A stretch of 64,000 nt of DNA from a virus: the IMG/VR virus record IMGVR_UViG_3300020048_000039, positions 32,001 to 96,000 of that record; one strand, written 5' to 3'. Each line of letters opens with the position of its first letter. Positions within the stretch are counted from its first letter, which is position 1. Made by a program: the position numbers and the translations under genes. Below the pieces are notes generated by a model. It saw only the letters and a list, made by a program, of their open reading frames with translations, was not told the origin of the DNA and did no database searches. Shown here piece after piece: positions 10,326 to 56,323 of the stretch.

Positions 10326-10934
10326 ATGAGTGAAAAGGAATACAGTAACGAGTTCAAATTTTCATTACATCAAGGCGATGTTCTACTATGCGAAAACGTA
10401 TTTGATGCCGACCAATTTAATCCCTTTACCAGATATTCTATCGACATTAGGGAAATTTTACCAAGAGCAATTACGAAGTTGCAAAAAACTCTCTCAAAGA
10501 GAAGCTACATAACGGAATTGTCAGATGATATGGATTTTTTCCAGTATCATCAAAAAATGGTTAATCTATATCCTCAAGAATATAGGAGCAATATGCGATA
10601 TAATCCGCAGTCTATTATCCAACAGATTGAAGAAAAAACAATCAGGGGAGTGGAATGTAAAATTGGATTTTATATTAACGATAAGCCAATTGTTGAAAGA
10701 ATTTTCTATGTCAACGAATTTAATCCAGTCGCAAGATGGTCGGCAGATGTTGTTTACACAGTAAGTGAAATCACAGATTCTATCTTCGAGAAGATTAAGA
10801 AAAATGATGTTAAGAACATGTGGGACGACTACGATTTGATTAATATCAGGGGATTATCCATCAATCAGATAAGAGAACTCACACTCTTACAGAGAGAGCA
10901 AATGTTGAGGCGACTCAATAGAAATGCATCTTAG
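10326..10934 (+). CDS. hypothetical protein in the replication cluster
   Basis: 202-aa ORF; no motif recognised. Confidence 0.75.
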   Translation: MSEKEYSNEFKFSLHQGDVLLCENVFDADQFNPFTRYSIDIREILPRAITKLQKTLSKRSYITELSDDMDFFQYHQKMVNLYPQEYRSNMRYNPQSIIQQIEEKTIRGVECKIGFYINDKPIVERIFYVNEFNPVARWSADVVYTVSEITDSIFEKIKKNDVKNMWDDYDLINIRGLSINQIRELTLLQREQMLRRLNRNAS

Positions 10935-13182: not shown

Positions 13183-13254
13183 TGCGGGGTGGAGCAGAGG
13201 TAGCTCGTGAGAATCATAATCTTAAGGTCGTGGGTTCGAATCCCACTCCCGCTA
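13183..13254 (+). tRNA. trnM: tRNA-Met(CAT) with initiator-like acceptor and D arms; CCA not encoded
   Basis: Cloverleaf: TGCGGGG/TCCCGCT (1:72 mismatch), D stem GAGC/GCTC, anticodon arm TGAGA-ATCATAA-TCTTA (CAT at 13215-13217), T arm GTGGG-TTCGAAT-CCCAC; discriminator A followed by CAA. Confidence 0.9.
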
Positions 13255-13421
13255 CAAATATACACAGTAAAGCCTCTTGCGAAAGCAATGTAACTGTGTT
13301 TAACTTTTTTGGTTGTTGGTATCAGTGTTTTTAGCAAAAAACGGGGCATACCGCCTAACATTTAATTTATTGGTCAAGAATGGTTTTTGTCGGCATTTGT
13401 CGATTTTTTTCAAAAAATAAG

Positions 13422-42201: not shown

Positions 42202-42834
42202 ATGGAATTTAAAAAGAAAGACATTGAAGAAATAATCGACACCAATGGAGAATTAATTGGATTAGATGATATACCATCAAACGATGCTAATGCCGACACT
42301 GCTGCTCACGGAACGACTGACCAAAATGTAAAAATTGGTCAGCAACCGTTCCGATATGATATGTTGGGTCGTTTTGGCTTTAGTATGATGCCTTTTATGG
42401 AAGGTAAAGAAGATTCTAAGGAAAGAACTGCACTTATAAACGATTTGGCTAAACTTAGTTACGATAATTATATACGTATAATCAGGCATTACTATAAGAA
42501 CCCAAATAAATTAAAGGTTGACTATAGGATGCATTCAGAACACAATTTTGAAACACAGCCTGAACATAATATGGAAACTGATTTTGATTTTGCTGATATG
42601 ATAATGAAAGTTGTTCAAAAGCATTTCGAAGATGCATTTAAAGAGCCTGAACAAATTGATGAATCTAAAGTTGTTGAGGATAAGATGCTTAACAAAAAGG
42701 GTGAAGATGAAATAACTGACAAAACAGAAGACATAGGTGTTAGAGAAAAGAAACTCGAAAAGATTGCTGGCTTGATTAACAAATTGGAGAAGAAAGATAT
42801 AGATAAACTTATTAATTTATTGGAGAGGAAATGA
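42202..42834 (+). CDS. hypothetical acidic protein, putative head-associated
   Basis: GTATTTAT box at 42178; IDESK linker-type motif. Confidence 0.65.
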   Translation: MEFKKKDIEEIIDTNGELIGLDDIPSNDANADTAAHGTTDQNVKIGQQPFRYDMLGRFGFSMMPFMEGKEDSKERTALINDLAKLSYDNYIRIIRHYYKNPNKLKVDYRMHSEHNFETQPEHNMETDFDFADMIMKVVQKHFEDAFKEPEQIDESKVVEDKMLNKKGEDEITDKTEDIGVREKKLEKIAGLINKLEKKDIDKLINLLERK

Positions 42835-43763
42835 GAAAATTAAATACGTGCGAATTTATTAATAAAGCATTTGCTATGTATGGTAATAAATATGATTACT
42901 CCTTAGTAAATTATGTGAACTCAAAAACAAAGATAAAAATTATTTGCTCAAAACATGGCACATTTGAACAAACGCCAAATAGCCATTTATGTGGATGTGG
43001 GTGTCCTAAATGCGGAGATTTATTAGTTAGTGAAAAAAAATGTGAAGATACAGACCATTTTATTAGTAGGGCAATTGAAAAACATGGTCATAAATATGAT
43101 TATTCGTTAGTTGATTATATTAATGTAAAAAGTTTTATCGTAATAATTTGTTGTGAGCACGGTAAATTTTCACAGCGAGCAAATGACCATTTAAATGGAA
43201 AGGGTTGTCCTATATGTGGAAAAATTTTAAAGGGAATTAAAATAAGAAAGAATACTGATTATTTTATTAATGAAGCAAAAAAAATTCATGGCAAGAAATA
43301 TAATTATTCGAATGTTGACTATGTAAAAAGTAAAATAAGCGTAAGCATCATATGTTCAAAACACGGTATGTTCAATCAAAAACCGAATGACCATTTAAAT
43401 GGAAAAGGCTGTCCAACATGTTGTGAGTCCAACGGAGAAAATAAAATAAGAACTTTTTTAAATGAAAATAATATTAAATATATTAAAGAGAAAAAATTCA
43501 GTAATTGTATTAACGTTAAAGAGCTTCCTTTTGATTTTTATCTTCCAGAATACGATGTTTTAATTGAATTTGATGGAGTGCAGCATTTTAATCCCATTAA
43601 TTATTTTGGTGGAATTGATGCATTAAATAATCAAATTATTAATGATAAAATAAAAAACGATTTTGCGAGAGTAAATAATTTTCATTTACTTCGAATACGA
43701 TTTGATGAAATAAATGAAATTAATAAAATCTTAAATACATATGAACCAATATTTAAAAGATAA
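42831..43763 (+). CDS. free-standing putative homing endonuclease (3 Zn-binding repeats + PD-(D/E)XK-like domain)
   Basis: 3x YDYS.V.Y.....IIC..HG.F.Q..N.HL.G.GCP.C; LPFDFYLPEYDVLIEFDGVQH; paralogue of 13510 and 54369. Confidence 0.85.
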   Translation: MRKLNTCEFINKAFAMYGNKYDYSLVNYVNSKTKIKIICSKHGTFEQTPNSHLCGCGCPKCGDLLVSEKKCEDTDHFISRAIEKHGHKYDYSLVDYINVKSFIVIICCEHGKFSQRANDHLNGKGCPICGKILKGIKIRKNTDYFINEAKKIHGKKYNYSNVDYVKSKISVSIICSKHGMFNQKPNDHLNGKGCPTCCESNGENKIRTFLNENNIKYIKEKKFSNCINVKELPFDFYLPEYDVLIEFDGVQHFNPINYFGGIDALNNQIINDKIKNDFARVNNFHLLRIRFDEINEINKILNTYEPIFKR

Positions 43764-44490
43764 AACCTATAGGATACCACCAGATGTATTAAGGGGTATT
43801 AGTGTAGCCAAAGCGTCCACTTCAAATGGAAGTGGTCTTAAAAGAGCTAATTTTCTGCTTAAAAATGGTGTTATAACCTATCAAGCAATGAAAAGACTTA
43901 AGAATTATTTTGATTATCACGACCCACAAACTGATGATAAAAATGAATATGCTCTTGCTGGTGGTGAATTAATGAAAAGCTTCATTCAAACAACACTTAA
44001 TCAAGACCGTGCAGGTATAAAAAGGACTGTAGATACAAAGCGTGAAGCTATGCCTATCATGAACGAAGCCGAAAAGAAGAAAAAAGAAAAACCAGTTAAA
44101 AATGCCTGTGCTATTATTGTTGACAAAGACAATAAAATATTGCTATTGAAACGAGCAGATATTGGTGAAATGTGGATGCCAAATAAATGGGCATTAGTTG
44201 GTGGTGGTGTTGAGAAAGGCGAAACACCTTTACAAGCGGTTGAGAGAGAAATTAAGGAAGAAACTGGTTTAGAAATCAAGAAATTTATTAGTTCATTTAA
44301 TTTACAACTAAACAGTACTAATAGTATTGAGTATATGTTTGTTTGTAGATTTGAAGGCGACCCAACCGAAGTGAATCTAAATCAAGAGAACATAAGATAT
44401 GGCTGGTTTAGTACTGGTGAAATGGATTATTTGGATACAGTCCCACATTTATTGGAATATATTACAATTGCTTTTAAAAGTTATGAGTAA
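43741..44490 (+). CDS. NUDIX hydrolase with an unknown N-terminal domain
   Basis: Nudix box GGVEKGETPLQAVEREIKEETG. Confidence 0.85.
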   Translation: MNQYLKDKTYRIPPDVLRGISVAKASTSNGSGLKRANFLLKNGVITYQAMKRLKNYFDYHDPQTDDKNEYALAGGELMKSFIQTTLNQDRAGIKRTVDTKREAMPIMNEAEKKKKEKPVKNACAIIVDKDNKILLLKRADIGEMWMPNKWALVGGGVEKGETPLQAVEREIKEETGLEIKKFISSFNLQLNSTNSIEYMFVCRFEGDPTEVNLNQENIRYGWFSTGEMDYLDTVPHLLEYITIAFKSYE

Positions 44491-45719: not shown

Positions 45720-46406
45720 ATGGCAGATAAGATTAATTTAAATAGACTTAAGGATGAAATAGATAACCGTAAAAGGGAAAAGGGCATGGTTACGACCAAC
45801 TCGAATGGTGTTAGCACAACTATGCCAGCACGTGATACCTTCCTAAACGGATTACTTGAATCATTCCAAACGGGTAGAGATACACGTTCATCGGTGGTGG
45901 TTAAAGAAGTGGTAAATAAGGTTGCTGAAAAAGCAGGTGAAACTGCACCAATACGTCAACAAGCTAACCTACCAATTCAGAATCATTCACAACAACCACA
46001 GAGAATATCAGAAGCAGACATGTCTGGTGTTGAAAGAGACGAACAATTGTTTCTTGACTTGCAAAAAAGGAGAAGCCTGACGTTGGCTGAATCAATTCAG
46101 GATTATTCTAAGATTCCTAATGTTGGTGCTCCAATGAATACTCAACCAACAACCAATATGGGTGGTGGTATGATGATTAATGAAGCATATTTGACTGAGA
46201 ATGTTAAAAATGTGGTTAACAATTACTTGGCTGAGAATTTCGGTCCCATCATCGAAGAATCCATTAAGAGTACAATTCTTGAAATGTATGCTCTTGAGAG
46301 AATTAAAACAGTCTTAGCAGAAAACAAAGATATGATTCGAGGGGTGGTGAAAGAAGTCATACAAGAAATTAGTGATAGAAATAAAGCAAGGAAAGCGCAA
46401 TCTTAA
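45720..46406 (+). CDS. hypothetical protein, putative head/scaffold-associated
   Basis: GTATTTAT box at 45689; ISEAD, LAESI, INEAYLTEN motifs; helical C-terminus. Confidence 0.65.
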   Translation: MADKINLNRLKDEIDNRKREKGMVTTNSNGVSTTMPARDTFLNGLLESFQTGRDTRSSVVVKEVVNKVAEKAGETAPIRQQANLPIQNHSQQPQRISEADMSGVERDEQLFLDLQKRRSLTLAESIQDYSKIPNVGAPMNTQPTTNMGGGMMINEAYLTENVKNVVNNYLAENFGPIIEESIKSTILEMYALERIKTVLAENKDMIRGVVKEVIQEISDRNKARKAQS

Positions 46407-46422
46407 TTGCGCTTTTTTTTTT
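46392..46422 (+). terminator. intrinsic terminator overlapping the stop codon
   Basis: AAAGCGCAAT/ATTGCGCTTT plus T-run. Confidence 0.7.
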
Positions 46423-46461: not shown

Positions 46462-49400
46462 ATGGCAATTTATAAGATAATAAAACCCATCGAAGAACTC
46501 TATAACAATGCAGATGGTAATGATGATATTCTTTCAGATATTGGAACTACTGCCGAAGTTAGAATGGGACACACAATAACTCCAGATAACACAGTAAATG
46601 AGTTTGGCGGTGATTCATTGTATTCACACGATGATAGTATTGGTGATGACGAATTTCCTGCTTATAATAATGCAGACTCTTCACCTTCAATAGAGAACAA
46701 CCTAAATGCCAATTCTGCAATGTATAATGAAGACTTGGAATATAATCATGTTAGTGATGCAACCCAAGACACATACGTAATAGGTGAAGAATTTCTTGGC
46801 ACTGATAAGCGTTTTGAAGATGAATTTGAAATCTTTAAAAATCCCAAATCAATTAAAAACCTAAGAAAAGACATTAAAGGGATTATCGATATGAAAACTG
46901 GCGATTTTTATGTTGCCAACTATAATATGATGTTACATATTGATTTAGCACGATGGTTAAATGTGAAATTAGGTTTTAATATTCCCGAAAAATGGAATGA
47001 TTTGTATGATGGTACTACATACTTAGCAGTACAGAGACGCAAGGATTCTAATATTTTTGGTTTATCAGAAGTTTATACATATGAAGATTATAATATGGAT
47101 GACTATGAAATCGAAAGAATCATAAGTGCATTTGAAAAAGCAAACCAAAAAAATCCTACAATAGAATTTAGTCTTGAGGGTATTGAAAGAAAAACTAAGC
47201 CAGAACCTGTTGATGCATTAGATGAAAGAGTATTATCATCAATGGCTGGTAGTTCCAGCGTTGAAGTTAAACAGAAATGTAGATTAGCAGGCAACGGTAA
47301 CACAAGCACACCTTGTAATCAGGGTGATATTGGTAATCTCAACATTAAGCCACTAAAAGAAGCATACGTCAATCTTCCATATAATAAAACGTATTGGGGA
47401 TGGGTTTCACCAGAGAATCAATTTACACAAGTTCCTGAACTAAAACATGCAGCATTCATCGAAAAAAGATATCCCGACATGTGGGACACCGATAAAATAT
47501 TCGACAAAGCATTTGCAGATGGATGGGTAAGAGTAATTTACGAATATTATCCAAATAGATACAAAGGTACGTTATCACTAAATGGTGGTGATGAAGAACG
47601 TGTTTTACATGTATTAAAAAACATATTTCTTGATAGCATTAGGTGGAGTAATACTACAATTTATTTACAATTTGAGAATCCAAATACTTCACGTGTTTTT
47701 AACACTGGTGATTCAGAGGGTAAAGCAGAATTGGCTAATTATTTAGGTGGACTTAACGAAATAAATGAAGAATCATTGGGTGTTATTGATTATGAAGACG
47801 TAGAATTGAACAATCCGATTGAAATGTTTAAAAATCCTAAATCACTGAGGAATTTAAAACCAAGCATCAGGGGAATTATTGATGCTGAGACTGGTGATTT
47901 ATATGCTGCAAACACATCCAACTATTTCCACAATATGTTAATTAAGTGGCTTAATCAAAATGTTGGCACACATTATACTGATAATTATAACTTAATATAT
48001 AAAAGTCCTGATGAACTTATTCCAGTCCAAAGAGACCAAAACACCAACGTGTTTAAATTAGGTGAAATGTATCCTACCAATCTTGATAAGGAAATGGAGG
48101 GTAGACGTGAAATGCTTGCTAAAATAAAAAATGGTTTAGCATTGGCAAAACAAAAGAATCCAAGTATTGAGTTTATACCTCAAACAATCGATAGTATTGA
48201 AATGCATGAACAATTAAATGAAGAGATTGATGCCAGTGAAGCATATAGAGATGAAGATGGATTGCAAACTATTCTTGATGGAAAACGTAATGTTGGTGGC
48301 TATGTAACATATAATAGAAAAAATGTTATTCAGATGTTGGAAGATACTGGATTGAACATTCTCCCACTCAGTGATAATCCATATGGCTTAGTAATAGTGT
48401 TTAATGATAAAGGAAGAGAAAATGCAATGAGGTTATGGAAGTTTGCAATATCTAAGGGTGGTTATTTTCAAGATAGTACACCTGATGAAGCACGCTTTAT
48501 TGGAAAAATGCTCGAATATACTGATACATCAATAGAAACCTATGTTAATAGAATATACGATGAAAACAGTCAGAGAAGAAAACAATCATTAAATGAAGAT
48601 TTTGATGATAATAAATATGTTGCTGTAGTTACACCCGATATGCAATTAATTAAAGGTACTACACACAATGCAATTTTTAAACAATTATTTCCCGATATTG
48701 AAGGTTATGCTGAAAAATATGACCATGCATTCGAAAATGGATATGTTAGGGTTATATGGAATGAAAATGAATATCAGGGTCAACCAATAATACACGCCAG
48801 TTTCGAAGGTAACAAAGCAAATCTGATTGCTGCCCTTAAAAGATTTTATTATAAAGAGATTATTACGAATAGAAGTAGTGTTAATATCGATATTTTTGAG
48901 ACAGGTAAAAGTTTAGGGTTCATCTTACCAGAACAAAAACAGGCATTCAGTGCATTCATGAGTGGATTGACAGAAGATATTGAAGAGGGTGTTGGCGATA
49001 AATATGTTGAAAGAAAATATCATATGCAACCAGAGTTTGACGACTTTGAACAATTATATAGAAACAAGCTCAGTACCGAAGGGCATGACGAAGTTGTGTA
49101 CGATGATACTAATAAGGGTGGTACTTTAAGGATTATTAAGAACCCAAAATCATTGAATAGTGTTGGTGCGGATGTTAGAGGTGTTATAGATAGAGAAGGA
49201 AATTTTTATACCGAACAACGAGTATCTGGAAAGGTACATGTTGCAATTCTTGGTGTGTTGGAAGATTTGGATTTAATTCCAGAAGATTGGGATTGGGGTG
49301 AACACTTACCAACAGATTTTATCACGGTGCAAAGAAGTAAAGATGAAAATGCTATTTTACTTAGTGAGAAGACCGAAATGATGACACCACCAGAAGAAAG

Positions 49401-52400
49401 AGACCCTGAATATTATGGAGCAGGGTATTGGGAAAGTTTTCCATCGTATGAAGAAGCATATCCAGAATTTCAGAAATTTATTGATAGAGCTAAAGCAAAG
49501 AACCCAAGCATTAATTTCATTAATGCAAATATCGTCTATTATGAGGGTAATGGTTCTAAAAATATAAAAGAATATAATAATTTTGATAATGGTGTTGACG
49601 GTTTGGAAAATAGTAGTACCTTTGCAGCCGAAATCCCTGTAAATACCAGTACTGAAATGATGACTGAAAATAAATTAATGTCTTTAAATGATTTACCATT
49701 CAAAGCGGATGTTGAAGCAATGGGGGGTAGTATTCATGCAGTGGGAGGAAGCGTGCGTGATTCATTCTTAGGTAAAGATTCGAAGGATTTGGATGTTCTT
49801 ATTACTGGTGTTCCGCTTGATGACTTAGAAAGAATCGTTTCTAAATATGGTCGTGTTGACTCAGTTGGAAAATCGTTTGGTGTACTTAAGTTCATGCCAA
49901 ATGGTGTAGATTTAGATGAACCTATTGACATTGCGATTCCAAGGACAGAGAAAATGACTGCTGGTGGTGGTCATAAAGACTTTGACGTAACTTCAGACCA
50001 TACGTTACCGATTGAAAGGGATTTAGAACGTAGAGACATTACCATCAATGCAATTGCAAAAGATGCTAACGGTAATATTATTGACCCGTATGGTGGACAG
50101 GAAGACCTTAAGAATAAAATAATCCGTGCAGTTAATCCACAGGCATTTAGTGATGACCCGCTTCGTATGCTCAGGTGTGTGGGATTTGCAAGTCGTTTTG
50201 GCTTTACTATTGAGCCAACTACAATGAAAATGATTCAGGACACTGCTGATAGAATTTCAGGTATTGCTACTGAAAGATTGTTAATTGAGTTTGATAAAAT
50301 AATTAAAAAAGGTAACATTAGACTTGGTGTACAATTATTGAAGGATACTGGCTTATTTAAACATATCTTTGGATTTGACATACAGCAATCAACGATTGAT
50401 AGAAGTCCGTTTGAAGAAGTACGTACAATGGGTGAATTTCTATACCTGTTAATACGTTTATCACCAAATCCTGCTGAATTTTACTTGGGTAAGTTTGCAA
50501 CGGAAGATGCAAAACGTGATAAGATATACAAAGAAATTAAGGCATTGGATATTGGTTTGAGTAATCAAAACGATAATCCAATTGCGTTAAGGTCTATTGC
50601 ACATAACATGTACACGATTGCACCAGAATCTTTAGGTAGTGAAATATTACCAGAAGCACTTGAAATAGCTGCACAGGAATTGTTATCAGGTAAATATCCA
50701 AAGACTGTTGGAGAATTAGCTGTTAATGGAAATGATTTACTTGCAGCAGGTTTGAAGGGTAAAGAGATTGGTGATGCGCAGAGAAAAATGTTATTGAAAA
50801 TATATTCAGATAAACTTCCTAATGATAAGGATTCATTGTTAGCATTATTGGGTAATAATGATTTGGATGAAGCTAATTTAAAGAAAGCAGCAGAAATGGT
50901 GCGAAAATATACCGTAGATGAAAAAAAGGAAGATTTTGATGAAGGTGTTGGTGATAAGTACGCAGAAAGAAAATTTGGTATACCTGATGCTGGTGCTGAG
51001 TTTGATACACTATATAGGCAAGCAAAGGCTGTTAGTGGTGAAAAACCAGTGGCATATGTTAATGGTTTTAACACCAAGACGAATGCTAAAGAGCAATCAC
51101 CAATTTTCTTGAATCCAAAATCATTAAACGGATTTGATAATGCAGTACGAGCAATTTCAGATGAAAGTGGTAATTTATATGTGGCGCAAAAGAATTATGG
51201 ATTTACTCATGGTGATATATCAGTAGCATTGGGATTTTTTAGAAGTAACTATCAAATATTCGAAAGCTACGATAGATATACAACGTATCATAGAGTAGAT
51301 GCAATGCCAGCGTTTGGAATTTCACCAACAAATGAACAATATTTGAAGAAAGGTAATGAAGAAATTGTTGAGAATTTATTAAATGCTGCACGTCAGAAGA
51401 ATCCACAATATGATTTTACGACAGATTACTTTGAGTATGTGAGTGGTAAATACAATGATGAAGTTGGCGTTGATGAAGGTGTTGGAGATAAGTATGCTGA
51501 AAAACGTTTTGGTATTCCTGATGCTGGTGCTGAGTTCGAAAAGAAGTACCAACAAAATAGATTAGTGATTGACGGTAATGAACCATTTGGTTATGTTAGT
51601 GATTTTATTGATTGGAAAGGTAAAACAAGTCCTGAAAAAGTGCCTGTTTACAAAAATCCAAAATCATTAAGAGATTTTGATTATAATGTAAGGGCAATAT
51701 CTGATACACAGGGTAATTTATATGTTGCACTTGTTGACGAAGCATTCAATCATGGCGAAATGGCTGCACATATTGGTTTAATGAATGGTGATGATACTAT
51801 ATATGAGAGAATCACTGATTTTCTATTACTAAATAGGGTCAAAGATAAGGATGTGTTTGGATTTGCTGATAGTAGTGAAGAAGAATATAATCAAAGTAAT
51901 GAAGACCGTAAGCGTGTTACAGAATTGCTTAACATAGTTAAAAGAAGTAATCCACAATTTAAATTCATCCCAAAGTATTATGAAGAAATTACAGGAGATT
52001 TAAATGTTGATGAAAGTCTTGACGAAACAATAAAAGGTGGTAAATATATCATGTATCATGGTAGTAACCATGCATTCAATAAATTCACTGATGAATTTGT
52101 TGGTGGTGAAAGCGCAAACGACCAAGAAGGTGCTGGAATTTATTTCACAACATCTAAGGAAGAAGCTAATAGATATGGCAAATACATATACAAAGTACAG
52201 TTGAAACCAAGGAAGCTAACTAATATTGCAAACAAAAGATTTGTATCGGTAAGTGATATGACCAAGCTAATTAAAATGTCACCAACATGGAAAGATGATG
52301 TCCAAAATTGGGACGAAAATATCATAAGAGGACTTGCAATTGCAATAAAAAGCATAATGGAATATTCTGACAATGAAAAAGATTTATTCCAACAGATTGA

Positions 52401-52962
52401 GCATGACTTCTTTAGGTATCAACCGAGATTATATGTTCAAGGAATGACAAAATTGGGTTATGATGGTCAGCTAATTGATAAGGATTATGAGGGTATTGTG
52501 CATATCATTGTTTACAACCCTGAGATTATCACAATTCTCGAAAGTAATGTTGAAAATACCGAACCAATAAATGAAGAAGAAATGAGTAATATTGCTTATA
52601 GTGCTGTTGTGCTTGATAATGTATCACATCAGAAATTAGTTAAAGTGTTTAAACCTATGATTCCAAAGGATTGGGAAATTCTTGCACATCACATGACATT
52701 AAACTTAGGTGGTATCGACCCTAAGTTTGAACAGGATTTGGGTCGTGACATTGAATTAAGTGTTGTCGATTATGCTATGGATGATAAAGTAATGGCTGTG
52801 GGCGTTGAAGGTTATCCAACCAACAACAAGAAAGCACATATTACTATTGCCGTGAATAGAACTGTTGGTGGTAAACCTATGATGTCAAATGATTTAAGTG
52901 ATTGGAAACCAATCGAATTTCCATTACAAATAGATGGAACAATAACTGAAATAGAAAGATGA
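46462..52962 (+). CDS. 2166-aa polyvalent protein: 5x NPKS domain, 2x H/G(W/Y)VRV domain, class II tRNA nucleotidyltransferase, ART-like domain, 2H phosphodiesterase
   Basis: Motifs read directly from the translation; see the sub-features. Confidence 0.9.
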   Translation: MAIYKIIKPIEELYNNADGNDDILSDIGTTAEVRMGHTITPDNTVNEFGGDSLYSHDDSIGDDEFPAYNNADSSPSIENNLNANSAMYNEDLEYNHVSDATQDTYVIGEEFLGTDKRFEDEFEIFKNPKSIKNLRKDIKGIIDMKTGDFYVANYNMMLHIDLARWLNVKLGFNIPEKWNDLYDGTTYLAVQRRKDSNIFGLSEVYTYEDYNMDDYEIERIISAFEKANQKNPTIEFSLEGIERKTKPEPVDALDERVLSSMAGSSSVEVKQKCRLAGNGNTSTPCNQGDIGNLNIKPLKEAYVNLPYNKTYWGWVSPENQFTQVPELKHAAFIEKRYPDMWDTDKIFDKAFADGWVRVIYEYYPNRYKGTLSLNGGDEERVLHVLKNIFLDSIRWSNTTIYLQFENPNTSRVFNTGDSEGKAELANYLGGLNEINEESLGVIDYEDVELNNPIEMFKNPKSLRNLKPSIRGIIDAETGDLYAANTSNYFHNMLIKWLNQNVGTHYTDNYNLIYKSPDELIPVQRDQNTNVFKLGEMYPTNLDKEMEGRREMLAKIKNGLALAKQKNPSIEFIPQTIDSIEMHEQLNEEIDASEAYRDEDGLQTILDGKRNVGGYVTYNRKNVIQMLEDTGLNILPLSDNPYGLVIVFNDKGRENAMRLWKFAISKGGYFQDSTPDEARFIGKMLEYTDTSIETYVNRIYDENSQRRKQSLNEDFDDNKYVAVVTPDMQLIKGTTHNAIFKQLFPDIEGYAEKYDHAFENGYVRVIWNENEYQGQPIIHASFEGNKANLIAALKRFYYKEIITNRSSVNIDIFETGKSLGFILPEQKQAFSAFMSGLTEDIEEGVGDKYVERKYHMQPEFDDFEQLYRNKLSTEGHDEVVYDDTNKGGTLRIIKNPKSLNSVGADVRGVIDREGNFYTEQRVSGKVHVAILGVLEDLDLIPEDWDWGEHLPTDFITVQRSKDENAILLSEKTEMMTPPEERDPEYYGAGYWESFPSYEEAYPEFQKFIDRAKAKNPSINFINANIVYYEGNGSKNIKEYNNFDNGVDGLENSSTFAAEIPVNTSTEMMTENKLMSLNDLPFKADVEAMGGSIHAVGGSVRDSFLGKDSKDLDVLITGVPLDDLERIVSKYGRVDSVGKSFGVLKFMPNGVDLDEPIDIAIPRTEKMTAGGGHKDFDVTSDHTLPIERDLERRDITINAIAKDANGNIIDPYGGQEDLKNKIIRAVNPQAFSDDPLRMLRCVGFASRFGFTIEPTTMKMIQDTADRISGIATERLLIEFDKIIKKGNIRLGVQLLKDTGLFKHIFGFDIQQSTIDRSPFEEVRTMGEFLYLLIRLSPNPAEFYLGKFATEDAKRDKIYKEIKALDIGLSNQNDNPIALRSIAHNMYTIAPESLGSEILPEALEIAAQELLSGKYPKTVGELAVNGNDLLAAGLKGKEIGDAQRKMLLKIYSDKLPNDKDSLLALLGNNDLDEANLKKAAEMVRKYTVDEKKEDFDEGVGDKYAERKFGIPDAGAEFDTLYRQAKAVSGEKPVAYVNGFNTKTNAKEQSPIFLNPKSLNGFDNAVRAISDESGNLYVAQKNYGFTHGDISVALGFFRSNYQIFESYDRYTTYHRVDAMPAFGISPTNEQYLKKGNEEIVENLLNAARQKNPQYDFTTDYFEYVSGKYNDEVGVDEGVGDKYAEKRFGIPDAGAEFEKKYQQNRLVIDGNEPFGYVSDFIDWKGKTSPEKVPVYKNPKSLRDFDYNVRAISDTQGNLYVALVDEAFNHGEMAAHIGLMNGDDTIYERITDFLLLNRVKDKDVFGFADSSEEEYNQSNEDRKRVTELLNIVKRSNPQFKFIPKYYEEITGDLNVDESLDETIKGGKYIMYHGSNHAFNKFTDEFVGGESANDQEGAGIYFTTSKEEANRYGKYIYKVQLKPRKLTNIANKRFVSVSDMTKLIKMSPTWKDDVQNWDENIIRGLAIAIKSIMEYSDNEKDLFQQIEHDFFRYQPRLYVQGMTKLGYDGQLIDKDYEGIVHIIVYNPEIITILESNVENTEPINEEEMSNIAYSAVVLDNVSHQKLVKVFKPMIPKDWEILAHHMTLNLGGIDPKFEQDLGRDIELSVVDYAMDDKVMAVGVEGYPTNNKKAHITIAVNRTVGGKPMMSNDLSDWKPIEFPLQIDGTITEIER
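49595..49624 (+). promoter_or_regulatory. internal Bacteroidota-type promoter upstream of the CCA domain
   Basis: TTG(49595)-N19-TACCTTTG(49617)CA, followed by in-frame ATGs at 49657, 49660 and 49678. Confidence 0.5.
49678..50856 (+). other. cca: class II tRNA nucleotidyltransferase (CCA-adding-type) domain, without an HD domain
   Basis: AVGGSVRD...KDLDV, ARTE-like PRTE, RDLERRDITINAIA, DPYGGQEDL, FSDDPLRMLR, tail LAVNGNDL..G..IG. Confidence 0.88.
52042..52539 (+). other. ADP-ribosyltransferase-like domain (ART-PolyVal-like)
   Basis: MYHGS...GAGIYFTTSKEEANRYG..YKVQL...LGYDG...IVYNP. Confidence 0.7.
52582..52959 (+). other. 2H phosphoesterase / Trl1-type cyclic phosphodiesterase domain
   Basis: YSAVVLD, two HxT motifs (HMT at 52690, HIT at 52837), G.KPMMSNDL..W. 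Confidence 0.8.
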
Positions 52963-52985
52963 CAAAAATTAAAAGATTAATAGCA

Positions 52986-53018
52986 TTTGACTTTATGTTA
53001 TAATTTTTCATAATTTTG
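52986..53018 (+). promoter_or_regulatory. Bacteroidota-type promoter
   Basis: TTTG(52986)-N21-TAATTTTG(53011), a full consensus match. Confidence 0.7.
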
Positions 53019-53052
53019 TTGTTTTATAAAAAAAAACTAAAAGTTTTGTGAA

Positions 53053-53970
53053 ATGACTACGGATAATAAAATAAAGAGACTCCAAGTTTTTGATTTTGAT
53101 GGCACATTAGCCAATAGCCCAATGCCAGAAGATGGAAAAAAGAAATGGGGAGAGTTTCATGGTAAACCTTTTCCACATAAAGGATGGTGGGGTAGACCAG
53201 AAAGTTTAGACTTAGGTGTGTTTGACATTAAAATGTTTCCAAGCGTGCTTAATCAGTTGAAGCGTGAAGTTTCAACGCCTGATACGTATGTGATTATTCT
53301 CACATCACGTATGGAAAAACTACGTCCACAACTCAAAGCAGTTCTGGATGCAAACGCTGTTCATGTCAACGCACTTGATATGAAGCACAATGAATTAACG
53401 AAAGGTGAAAAAATCTTGCGTTATATCGACCATTTACCTGACTTGGAAGAAGTAAGTGTTTATGACGATAGGGAAGGTGACATTGCATCTTATCAGGCAA
53501 TAAGAAACAGAATACCAGAAGGTATTTCTTTTAATATTTATTTGGCTGATAGTGGTAAGTTTGGATTAGTTGAAGTGGAAAATAATGATAAGCTAACACA
53601 TATTATTATGGAAGAAATTATAAACTTTGCTGATAGTGGTGAAATTTATCATGGGACACATGTTGGTGCAGCCATTAGTATTCAGCGTAATGGTGGAATG
53701 AAACTCAACACCGAACCATATATTTCTTTCACAAGTAAACCAAGTGTTGCAAAGTATTATGCTGAAATGAAAGGTGGTAGGGATAGGGGGATTATTTTGA
53801 GAACACAATTAACCAACGATTTTAAACAATCACCAAAATTTGATAAAAAGGATGGTTATGAGTGGATAACAACACGTGAAATCCCATCAAGTGAGTTAGA
53901 GGTTATGACTTCACAAGGCTGGATTCCATTAAATAAATGGGACTTTATTGATAAAGAAATTAAGACATGA
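53053..53970 (+). CDS. HAD-family phosphatase (Swiss-Army-knife RNA-repair type) fused to an ART-like domain
   Basis: VFDFDGTL, WWGRPESL, ILTSR, K...VYDDR; C-terminal IYHGT...YISFTSKPSVAKYYA...YEW. Confidence 0.8.
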   Translation: MTTDNKIKRLQVFDFDGTLANSPMPEDGKKKWGEFHGKPFPHKGWWGRPESLDLGVFDIKMFPSVLNQLKREVSTPDTYVIILTSRMEKLRPQLKAVLDANAVHVNALDMKHNELTKGEKILRYIDHLPDLEEVSVYDDREGDIASYQAIRNRIPEGISFNIYLADSGKFGLVEVENNDKLTHIIMEEIINFADSGEIYHGTHVGAAISIQRNGGMKLNTEPYISFTSKPSVAKYYAEMKGGRDRGIILRTQLTNDFKQSPKFDKKDGYEWITTREIPSSELEVMTSQGWIPLNKWDFIDKEIKT

Positions 53971-54338
53971 GAAAAATTTTAATTGCAGAGGACAATGAAA
54001 TGAATTACAATCTATTTTTATTAATGTTAAAGGACATTTTGAATATTATCATACTTCATGCTAATGATGGTAACGAAGCCATTGAACTCTGTGATTTAAA
54101 TCCAGATATTTCGTTGGTATTAATGGATATTAACATGCCTAATATGAATGGTGAGGCTGCTGCTGTTGCAATTAAATTATCACACCCTAATATTCCAATT
54201 ATATCACAAACAGCATATTCGATTACTGGAATGGTTAGTGAAGAAAATAGGTGGTGCTTCGAAGATTTTATTTCGAAGCCGATTGATAGTTCTTATTTAA
54301 AAAAACTTGTTAAGAAATATTGTCCAGATGAAAAATAA
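53967..54338 (+). CDS. single-domain response regulator (CheY-like receiver)
   Basis: ILIAEDN, LVLMDINMPNMNG, QTAY, FISKP. Confidence 0.9.
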   Translation: MRKILIAEDNEMNYNLFLLMLKDILNIIILHANDGNEAIELCDLNPDISLVLMDINMPNMNGEAAAVAIKLSHPNIPIISQTAYSITGMVSEENRWCFEDFISKPIDSSYLKKLVKKYCPDEK

Positions 54339-54368: not shown

Positions 54369-55103
54369 GTGGGAAAGAAATCAACAAAAGAAGAGTTTAT
54401 TAAAAATGCTGTGAATATACATGGCAATAAATTTGACTATTCTAAAGTTGAATATATTGGTAATAAATCAAAAGTTATTATTAGTTGTCCACAACATGGT
54501 GAATTTTTACAGAGACCTAATGACCATTTAAGTGGATATGGGTGTAAAAAATGCCAATACTTTAAGACATCGAAAGAAAATAAATTTACTAATGATGAAT
54601 TTATTGGTAAGGCAAGTAAATTACATAATAATAAATTCGATTATTCTTTAGTTGTATACGATGGATATGAAAAAAAAATAAAAATTATATGTAAAAAACA
54701 TGGAATTTTTGAACAAACTCCACATAGTCATTGGAGTGGCGCAGGTTGTCCTTCATGCTCCGAATCTCGTGGCGAAAAGAAAGTTGCAGAAATTCTAACT
54801 GAAAATAATATTAAATTTGTCAGAGAATTAACTTTTAGCGATTTAAAAGATAAATCTAACTTATTTTATGATTTTTATTTACCAGAACACAAATTATTTA
54901 TTGAATATCATGGAATACAGCATTGTCGAAGCGTTGATTTTTTTGGTGGAAAGAAAGGATTGGTTGAGACAAGAAAACGTGACATAATCAAATATAAATA
55001 TGCGATAAATAACGGTTATAAGATAATCTGGATATTTAATATTCCACCAAATAATTTAAATGAAATATTAACAAAGAAATTGAAAGAAATATCAATAATA
55101 TGA
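54369..55103 (+). CDS. free-standing putative homing endonuclease (2 Zn-binding repeats + PD-(D/E)XK-like domain)
   Basis: 2x HGNKFDYS.V.Y....CPQHG.F.Q.P..HL.G.GC..C; LFYDFYLPEHKLFIEYHGIQH; GTG start. Confidence 0.82.
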   Translation: MGKKSTKEEFIKNAVNIHGNKFDYSKVEYIGNKSKVIISCPQHGEFLQRPNDHLSGYGCKKCQYFKTSKENKFTNDEFIGKASKLHNNKFDYSLVVYDGYEKKIKIICKKHGIFEQTPHSHWSGAGCPSCSESRGEKKVAEILTENNIKFVRELTFSDLKDKSNLFYDFYLPEHKLFIEYHGIQHCRSVDFFGGKKGLVETRKRDIIKYKYAINNGYKIIWIFNIPPNNLNEILTKKLKEISII

Positions 55104-56297: not shown

Positions 56298-56323
56298 AAA
56301 GCCAGTATTGTACTGGCTTTTTT
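56298..56323 (+). terminator. intrinsic terminator
   Basis: AAAGCCAGTA/TACTGGCTTT plus T-run. Confidence 0.75.

Follow-up and report, generated by a model that had tools for sequence, protein, structure and literature searches.

A putative module for healing and rebuilding tRNA 3′ ends in giant phages, with two of its three activities embedded in a polyvalent protein

We analyzed a 64,000-nucleotide stretch of viral DNA (the window), bases 32001-96000 of the IMG/VR record IMGVR_UViG_3300020048_000039, and found that it encodes three linked domains: a class II CCA-adding tRNA nucleotidyltransferase, a minimal 2H phosphoesterase and a HAD phosphatase. We interpret them, with moderate confidence, as a module of three activities that would heal and rebuild the 3′ ends of tRNAs and that would be a functional analogue of the CCA-HD repair enzyme of Escherichia coli. 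The record is 128,313 bases long and, because its CheckV completeness is only 39%, represents a fragment of a giant phage. The DNA has a G+C content of ~33%, and every large open reading frame (ORF) lies on the plus strand. A megablast search of the region against deposited phage genomes gave no match.

Two of the three domains belong to one protein. An ORF at 46462..52962 (plus strand, like all parts of the module), characterized from the ORF list, its translation, Pfam and PHROG domain matches and NPKS motif positions, encodes 2166 amino acids (aa). Its predicted content is that of a typical polyvalent protein: five NPKS modules, further unassigned modules, the CCA-adding domain, an ADP-ribosyltransferase (ART) domain of the ART-PolyVal family and the 2H domain. 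The HAD domain is encoded by the next gene, which specifies 305 aa (53053-53970). The initial annotation, made from the DNA letters and a list of ORFs, had reported these three domains, and our searches recovered all of them where it had placed them, with statistics far beyond chance. It had treated the parts as separate units; instead, the CCA-adding and 2H domains are embedded in the single polyvalent ORF, of which 49678-52962 is the C-terminal half, and the start it had chosen (49678) is Met1073. Two NPKS modules and the one ART-PolyVal domain lie between the CCA-adding and 2H domains, and the interval assigned to the phosphatase (53053-53640) covers the first 196 codons of the downstream gene.

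The transferase domain spans aa 1073-1480 (49678..50901) and was identified by Pfam, PHROG, PDB and NCBIfam matches together with its motifs. Pfam detected the PolyA_pol head (PF01743) at aa 1093-1222 (E 1.6e-20) and the PolyA_pol_RNAbd neck (PF12627) at aa 1247-1303 (E 4e-15), and PHROG 2244, “tRNA nucleotidyltransferase”, matched at 6e-60. A motif scan revealed all of the class II head motifs, which were aligned to 6ibp: motif A, GGSVRD (aa 1095)..DLD (aa 1109), at 49744-49794; motif B, RRD (aa 1190), at 50029-50037; motif D, DDPLR (aa 1231), at 50152-50166; and motif E, ERLLIEFDK (aa 1271), at 50272-50298. No HD domain was found among the Pfam matches of the 2166-aa protein, in agreement with its first description as a class II nucleotidyltransferase lacking this domain.

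Class II CCA-adding enzymes and the poly(A) polymerase PcnB have all head motifs in common, and PcnB models still matched the transferase at 1e-28. It is therefore conceivable that a poly(A)-type transferase acts on ends cleaned by the 2H and HAD domains and so marks host RNA for decay or takeover, or that the 2H domain is a 3′-trimming RNase resembling Usb1, a role raised by Iyer et al. 2017 (PMC5512222). We regard such a tailing or trimming function as very improbable. The Bacillus-type CCA model of NCBIfam, NF009814, scored 171.7 bits (2.4e-50), with an alignment that extended from the head into the tail (profile positions 22-392 of 396), whereas the pcnB model TIGR01942 scored 100.1 bits (1.2e-28), and every CCA model outscored every PcnB model. 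The best PDB matches were the CCA-adding enzymes 6ibp and 1miv (~1e-29), compared with ~1e-18 for poly(A) polymerases, and Usb1 is a weak fold match to the 2H domain (Z 5.3). The E. coli addition/repair model NF008137 matched the head and neck only (profile positions 3-207 of 409). Judging from these profile comparisons, the specificity of the transferase is likely to be CCA rather than A-tailing, as the initial annotation had assumed.

The 2H domain comprises the C-terminal 126 residues of the polyvalent protein (aa 2041-2166; 52582..52962) and was delineated from alignments A1 and A3, an AlphaFold2 model and a fold search. Its two catalytic motifs, H2077-M-T (52690-52698) and H2126-I-T (52837-52845), were invariant across 41 homologues. 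When the 2H and HAD alignments were used as profiles against the PDB, only noise was returned, so that fold searches were needed for both domains. The 2H model was predicted with high confidence (predicted local distance difference test [pLDDT] score of 93), and its best match was the catalytic domain of mouse CNPase, with Z 13.1 and a root-mean-square deviation of 2.1 Å over 126 of 132 residues. Other 2H folds followed at lower scores (a phage phosphodiesterase, Z 7.8; Acb1 [7t27], 7.2; plant CPDase, 6.7; LigT, 6.5; Usb1, 5.3), so that the matches from Z 13.1 down to 5.3 were all 2H enzymes. The only 2H-family match in Pfam was tRNA_lig_CPD (PF08302), the cyclic phosphodiesterase (CPD) family of fungal tRNA ligases; relatives exceed its cut-off, with 27.4 bits for protein P0169, and many of them are pre-annotated as PF08302. 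The fold model and the family matches support the assignment of the domain to the CNPase/Trl1-CPD kind, and the “Trl1-type” label it had first been given is retained.

The HAD domain occupies the N-terminal half of the 305-aa protein (53053..53577) and carries the four motifs of a DxDxT phosphatase, all of them conserved in 11 homologues: motif I, DFDGT (D14-F-D16-G-T18), at 53092-53106; motif II, T84-S85, at 53302-53307; motif III, K117, at 53401-53403; and motif IV, D138-D139 within YDD, at 53464-53469 (alignment A2). Its Pfam match, HAD_SAK_1 (PF10307), is borderline, lying exactly at the cut-off (1.3e-5; 25.6 bits vs a cut-off of 25.6), and the relative P0155 scored 29.1 bits against the same family; phrog_415 matched at 4.5e-7. 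A model of aa 1-170 (pLDDT ~90) gave Pnkp1 (4xrp, Z 13.4) and the T4 Pnkp phosphatase (5uj0, Z 13.1; 1ltq, Z 12.5) as its top three fold matches, with generic HADs at Z 11.5 or less. No kinase domain was detected by Pfam in the 305-aa protein. The modeled fold thus supports a closest relationship to polynucleotide 3′-phosphatases and other RNA-end phosphatases, the RNA-repair type to which the domain had originally been attributed.

We next asked how consistently the three domains occur together in related viruses. Searches of IMG/VR yielded 14 loci, 13 of them found with the CCA-adding domain (47-68% identity) and one with the HAD protein. Of these 14 loci, 11-12 preserve the order CCA..2H..HAD, while the remaining architecture varies: locus L011 has three separate adjacent genes (412, 123 and 186 aa); in L010, the CCA-adding and 2H domains are fused directly (608 aa); in L008, the CCA-adding domain lies in a polyvalent protein of 2247 aa, and separate 2H and HAD genes follow; and L012 and L014 have a 2688-aa protein with the CCA-adding domain and a C-terminal 2H domain. 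Anchoring the search on the 2H domain added 80 viral loci, for a total of 94. The three domains follow one another as CCA > 2H > HAD on one strand in 64 of the 80. One locus, L080, has all three in one ORF; nine loci hold partial sets (six 2H and HAD, three CCA and 2H), most of them cut by contig ends.

The 2H family had 1889 members among the 1.84 billion cluster representatives that were searched by profile, and 44 of its best 150 representatives carry a CCA-adding domain in the same chain. Fusions occur in several arrangements: 2H-CCA-HAD in P0169 (698 aa), P0199 and P0230; 2H-..-CCA-HAD in P0153; CCA-2H-HAD in P0156; 2H-HAD in P0155 and P0261; and 2H-CCA in P0189 and P0226. The fusion proteins retain both HxT motifs, DxD[GA]T and GGxVRD, and their architectures were confirmed independently by Pfam. 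A tree of the 2H domain, although of low resolution, requires the CCA..2H fusion state to have changed at least eight times on well-supported branches, and both domain orders are represented. Such repeated fusion in different orders is a real argument for functional linkage, and comparison of these sequences supports a functional link between the three domains; the initial annotation had suggested checking for co-occurrence across phages, and the three domains do co-occur, with recurrent fusion and fission in addition to the conserved order. A search of viral contigs with the triple-fusion protein P0169 found no related loci.

The fused CCA-adding and 2H domains of the window each begin at an in-frame Met (49657-49680 and 52582-52584). 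In the alignment, the 2H Met falls on the start codon of stand-alone homologues, and the CCA Met lies approximately where the stand-alone genes of L010 and L011 start. Since the fused domains start at retained Met codons, their sequences suggest that the fusions arose through loss of stop codons and intergenic spacers. In relatives, a family of ~165-176 aa often lies between the 2H and HAD genes and shows by eye a D..ExK pattern, possibly that of a nuclease, and a conserved family of 218 aa recurs between module parts. We considered whether the proteins between the parts in relatives (165-218 aa) are hidden copies of the window's domains; none matched, and some are GIY-YIG/NUMOD homing endonucleases. 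Divergent 2H members occur without CCA-adding or HAD domains: in L088 (6998-8498), the 2H gene adjoins a SpoU-type methylase and an RNA ligase, and in L094 (6983-8151), it adjoins a calcineurin-like phosphatase. From their gene content, both contexts look like RNA-end-healing settings with alternative sets of enzymes.

From the observed domain identities, intact catalytic motifs and evolutionary linkage, we infer a substrate, an order of steps and a biological role for the module. A metal-independent RNase would clip the acceptor end of a tRNA and leave a 2′,3′-cyclic phosphate (tRNA-N>p). The 2H domain, by analogy with CNPase and Trl1-CPD, would open the cyclic phosphate to a 2′-phosphate and a free 3′-OH, the Pnkp-like HAD domain would strip the remaining 2′- or 3′-phosphate, and the class II CCA-adding domain would add back the lost C, C and A. 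This transferase would, in a second role, complete the phage's own tRNAs that lack an encoded CCA. Two of these activities lie inside the polyvalent protein and may accordingly be made, and possibly delivered, with other counter-defence cargo; for polyvalent proteins, an action early in infection has been predicted (Iyer et al. 2017, PMC5512222).

A passage in PMC6961547, citing Yakunin 2004, states that the HD domain of E. coli Cca removes 2′,3′-cyclic phosphate from tRNA ends. The phage module resembles that enzyme in coupling a class II CCA-adding enzyme to cyclic-phosphate opening and phosphate removal, and we propose ligase-free 3′-end repair for it. It differs from E. coli Cca in that it has no HD domain, the work of which would be taken over by two unrelated folds, 2H (metal-independent) and HAD (aspartyl-phosphate), and in that its parts are divided between the polyvalent protein and a second gene. 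The same logic operates in the eukaryotic ANKZF1/Vms1-ELAC1-TRNT1 pathway, in which loss of CCA leaves a 2′,3′-cyclic phosphate, and this phosphate is cleared before a class II enzyme adds CCA anew. There, however, healing is performed by the metallo-β-lactamase ELAC1, the activities reside in separate proteins, and the context is that of ribosome quality control, not of a conflict between phage and host.

The individual domains likewise depart from their best-known counterparts. Like the CPD of Trl1 and vertebrate CNPase, the 2H domain has two HxT motifs, and it matches the CNPase fold across nearly its whole length; unlike them, it is short (~126 aa vs ~210-250 aa) and is not fused to a ligase or kinase, and, in contrast to the Trl1 tRNA ligase, no kinase or ligase family was detected in the 2166-aa protein or the 128-kb record. 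The HAD domain shares with T4 Pnkp, Pnkp1 and the “Swiss-army-knife” (SAK) HADs of PF10307 the DxDxT signature without a large cap, and T4 Pnkp and Pnkp1 provide its top three fold matches. Unlike T4 Pnkp, it has no kinase domain, is fused to a small ART-like domain and is partnered with a CCA-adding enzyme and a 2H domain rather than with a ligase. PF10307 HADs have been described as stand-alone RNA-end phosphatases of jumbo phages, and 2H, SAK-HAD and CCA-adding enzymes appear as separate entries among the RNA-repair parts that Iyer et al. 2021 list for these phages (PMC7824862). The giant beads-on-a-string chain with ART-PolyVal and 2H domains matches the polyvalent proteins described by Iyer et al. 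2017; that paper makes no mention of CCA-adding enzymes (PMC5512222), whereas the 2H domain is here tied to such an enzyme and to a HAD phosphatase. A literature search found no paper describing the linked triad, although Burroughs & Aravind 2016 (NAR 44:8525), which defined the SAK HADs, was outside its reach.

The need for CCA addition in these phages is evident from their tRNA genes. The only tRNA gene in the 128-kb record, tRNA-Met (CAT) at 13183..13255 of the window (plus strand), is followed by CAA, not CCA, so that its product needs post-transcriptional CCA addition; an Rfam scan of the window found no RNA besides it. Each of four complete relatives has 36-55 tRNA genes and a 91%-complete one has six, and an encoded CCA is lacking in 49 of the 52 sampled. 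The presence of phage tRNA without encoded CCA, asserted at the outset for the tRNA of this phage, therefore extends to its relatives. ARAGORN also reported “tRNA-Pyl”, its name for a CUA anticodon, in L100 (1380-1453; genome G002) and L102 (1501-1575; genome G005); going by this label, these genes may encode amber-suppressor tRNAs and hint at TAG recoding in part of the group.

Several points weigh against a role in healing and rebuilding tRNA ends. Because the CCA scores of the transferase all fall below the NCBIfam equivalog cut-offs (290 and higher), CCA specificity is likely, short of proof, and the tRNA_lig_CPD score of the window's 2H domain is also below its cut-off (17.7 bits vs 23). 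The loci come from related giant phages with synteny on both sides of the module (downstream genes of 268, 117 and 460 aa are present in 80-81 of the 94), so that the gene order is partly inherited and is weak evidence alone; independence can be claimed for the fusions only. A discriminator base or stem nucleotides, once lost, are beyond the reach of a CCA-adding enzyme, and cuts deeper than the CCA would thus escape this repair. The phage tRNAs certainly have to be matured, and for the transferase, taken alone, this is reason enough. Among the five near-complete relatives (299-365 kb), PF09414 RNA ligases occur in four and AAA_33 P-loop kinase matches in all five, three of them over the Pfam cut-off, in each case far from the triad. 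Since relatives encode such ligases and small kinases, the 2H and HAD domains could serve ligase-dependent repair as well. Finally, the ART domains, together with a NUDIX gene and a REC domain in the vicinity, would also fit a role centered on NAD/ADP-ribose.

The initial annotation had argued from the absence of a visible kinase or ligase that the module repairs acceptor ends rather than anticodon nicks. The 128-kb record, which lacks 60% of the genome, gave no match to an RNA ligase or AAA_33 kinase family; with relatives encoding both families elsewhere, this argument falls, while the linkage and the domain types on which the proposal of a tRNA-end-repair module also rested stand. The parts of the triad might have separate jobs, with the CCA-adding enzyme completing the many phage tRNAs and the 2H and HAD domains feeding ligases encoded elsewhere in a T4-like repair of anticodon loops, all within a shared “tRNA care” operon. 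The ligases and kinases of the relatives, their 6-55 tRNA genes and the RNA ligase next to the divergent 2H gene of L088 are in keeping with such a division. We nevertheless consider it unlikely, since it is the CCA-adding enzyme to which 2H and HAD domains have repeatedly been fused. No fusion of either to a ligase or kinase was seen among the best 150 representatives, which were screened only with the window's domain queries and not with ligase or kinase profiles. The ligases are also distant from the triad, with the nearest PF09414 match of G001 ~49 kb away and the others 140 kb or more. RtcB was absent from the five relatives examined.

The ART-PolyVal domain (aa 1859-2023; 52036..52530) was identified by PF18760 (2.5e-9) and phrog_25279 (6e-22), with a weak AcrIF11-ART match (0.007), and is present in a minority, seven, of the best 150 representatives of the 2H family. 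The C-terminal 120 aa of the HAD protein form a second, ART-like domain (aa 186-305; 53608..53970; alignment A6). Its YHGT, SFT and EW motifs are invariant, as in H-Y-E ADP-ribosyltransferases, and the weak leads obtained (Tpt1/KptA, 0.1; ART-PolyVal, 0.055; Arr-ms/PARP clusters of the Atlas, 0.93) accompany a sequence that is probably a minimal ART fold of the H-Y-E type. It was considered as a copy of the ART-PolyVal domain; neither BLASTP nor hhalign gave a significant match. The fusion of HAD with the ART-like tail recurs in at least seven other loci (L005, L020, L021, L022, L041, L047 and L065). A putative 2′-phosphotransferase-like role of the tail would fit the proposed pathway. In the closest relative, L015, whose HAD-ART gene is 81% identical, an in-frame TGA (10637-10639) replaces a Lys codon of the window; this could reflect a pseudogene, a sequencing error or recoding.

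A stand-alone REC gene (53967-54338; Pfam PF00072, 1.8e-16) overlaps the stop codon of the HAD gene. Its product retains the acidic pocket, the phospho-acceptor Asp, and the Thr and Lys, and is a candidate for “cRec”, a domain for processing cyclic phosphates that has been postulated in jumbo phages (PMC7824862); a REC gene follows the HAD gene in only 4 of the 94 related loci. A NUDIX hydrolase gene (43741-44490) lies two genes upstream of the polyvalent gene and, with the two ART-type domains, gives the neighborhood an NAD/ADP-ribose flavor.

These neighbors raise the alternative that the 2H domain, possibly with the HAD domain, clears signals or metabolites by degrading 2′,3′-cyclic nucleoside monophosphates, signals of the cyclic oligonucleotide or 2′-5′ oligoadenylate type, or ADP-ribose 1″,2″-cyclic phosphate. 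Because they never saw the 2H domains of polyvalent proteins with RNA ligases, Iyer et al. 2017 suggested that these domains act as RNases or degrade signals (PMC5512222), and the anti-CBASS protein Acb1 has a 2H fold. The window's domain is far closer in fold to CNPase, however, with Acb1 and the viral 2′-5′ phosphodiesterases at Z 4.8-7.2, and the HAD domain is closest to polynucleotide phosphatases. Moreover, NPKS modules, the ART domain, the ART-like HAD tail and the REC gene come and go among relatives, whereas the CCA-adding enzyme is the constant partner. Clearance of signals or metabolites consequently appears quite improbable to us as the function of the 2H and HAD domains, compared with the healing and rebuilding of tRNA ends.

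The polyvalent protein also contains five divergent NPKS-motif modules, each of ~130-190 aa, spread over 46792-52011. Two of them, at aa 1495-1690 and 1691-1850 (50944..52011, from NPKS motif positions), separate the CCA-adding domain from the ART domain. The family had no Pfam match, and its Atlas scores were all <0.9; its copies flank the CCA-adding domain in the polyvalent proteins of many relatives, where these modules form variable cargo. A consensus scan alone placed a terminator-like hairpin directly 5′ of the polyvalent gene (46388..46419, plus strand) and a second at 56298-56320, and these would bracket a putative operon of the polyvalent, HAD, REC and HNH genes and two unassigned genes. 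HNH homing-type endonuclease genes occur around the module in the window (42831-43763 and 54369-55103), and GIY-YIG or NUMOD3 genes of the homing type occur in relatives (L002, 10327-10977; L003, 11202-12143). Such genes have inserted around and between the module parts, which makes this region a hot spot of mobile endonucleases.

Damage of the kind that the module would repair is inflicted by several known defenses. The HEPN RNase LbaCas13a cleaves tRNA at A|CCA; according to the HEPN chemistry proposed in that study, a cyclic phosphate is formed first and then a 3′-phosphate (bioRxiv 10.64898/2025.12.03.690598). Cas12a3 cuts the CCA tails of tRNAs (PMC12851939), and toxSAS toxins pyrophosphorylate the CCA end (bioRxiv 10.1101/2021.04.30.441581; PMC9712102), a modification that a 3′-phosphatase might, as a speculation, reverse. 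We tentatively raise the possibility, to which we give less credence than to tRNA-end repair as such, that the triad is a dedicated counter-defense against nucleases and toxins acting on the tRNA 3′ tail, such as HEPN RNases of the kind of acceptor-end-cutting Cas13a, the RuvC-type Cas12a3 and possibly toxSAS, and that its placement in a polyvalent protein would ensure its presence from the first minutes of infection.

Defenses that cut or block the CCA tail cannot be escaped through phage-encoded variant tRNAs; the authors of the Cas12a3 study state that viral countermeasures are unknown and that resistance would need “yet unknown” means (PMC12851939). The widespread, evolutionarily linked 2H, HAD and CCA module of giant phages is a concrete and clonable candidate for such a countermeasure and, if the counter-defense interpretation is true, would supply the “yet unknown means of resistance”. 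The finding would also mean that two unrelated phosphoesterase folds fill the role of the HD domain in E. coli Cca, and it would revise the role proposed for at least this 2H family in polyvalent proteins. Finally, it would explain how phages with dozens of CCA-less tRNA genes keep their tRNAs chargeable.

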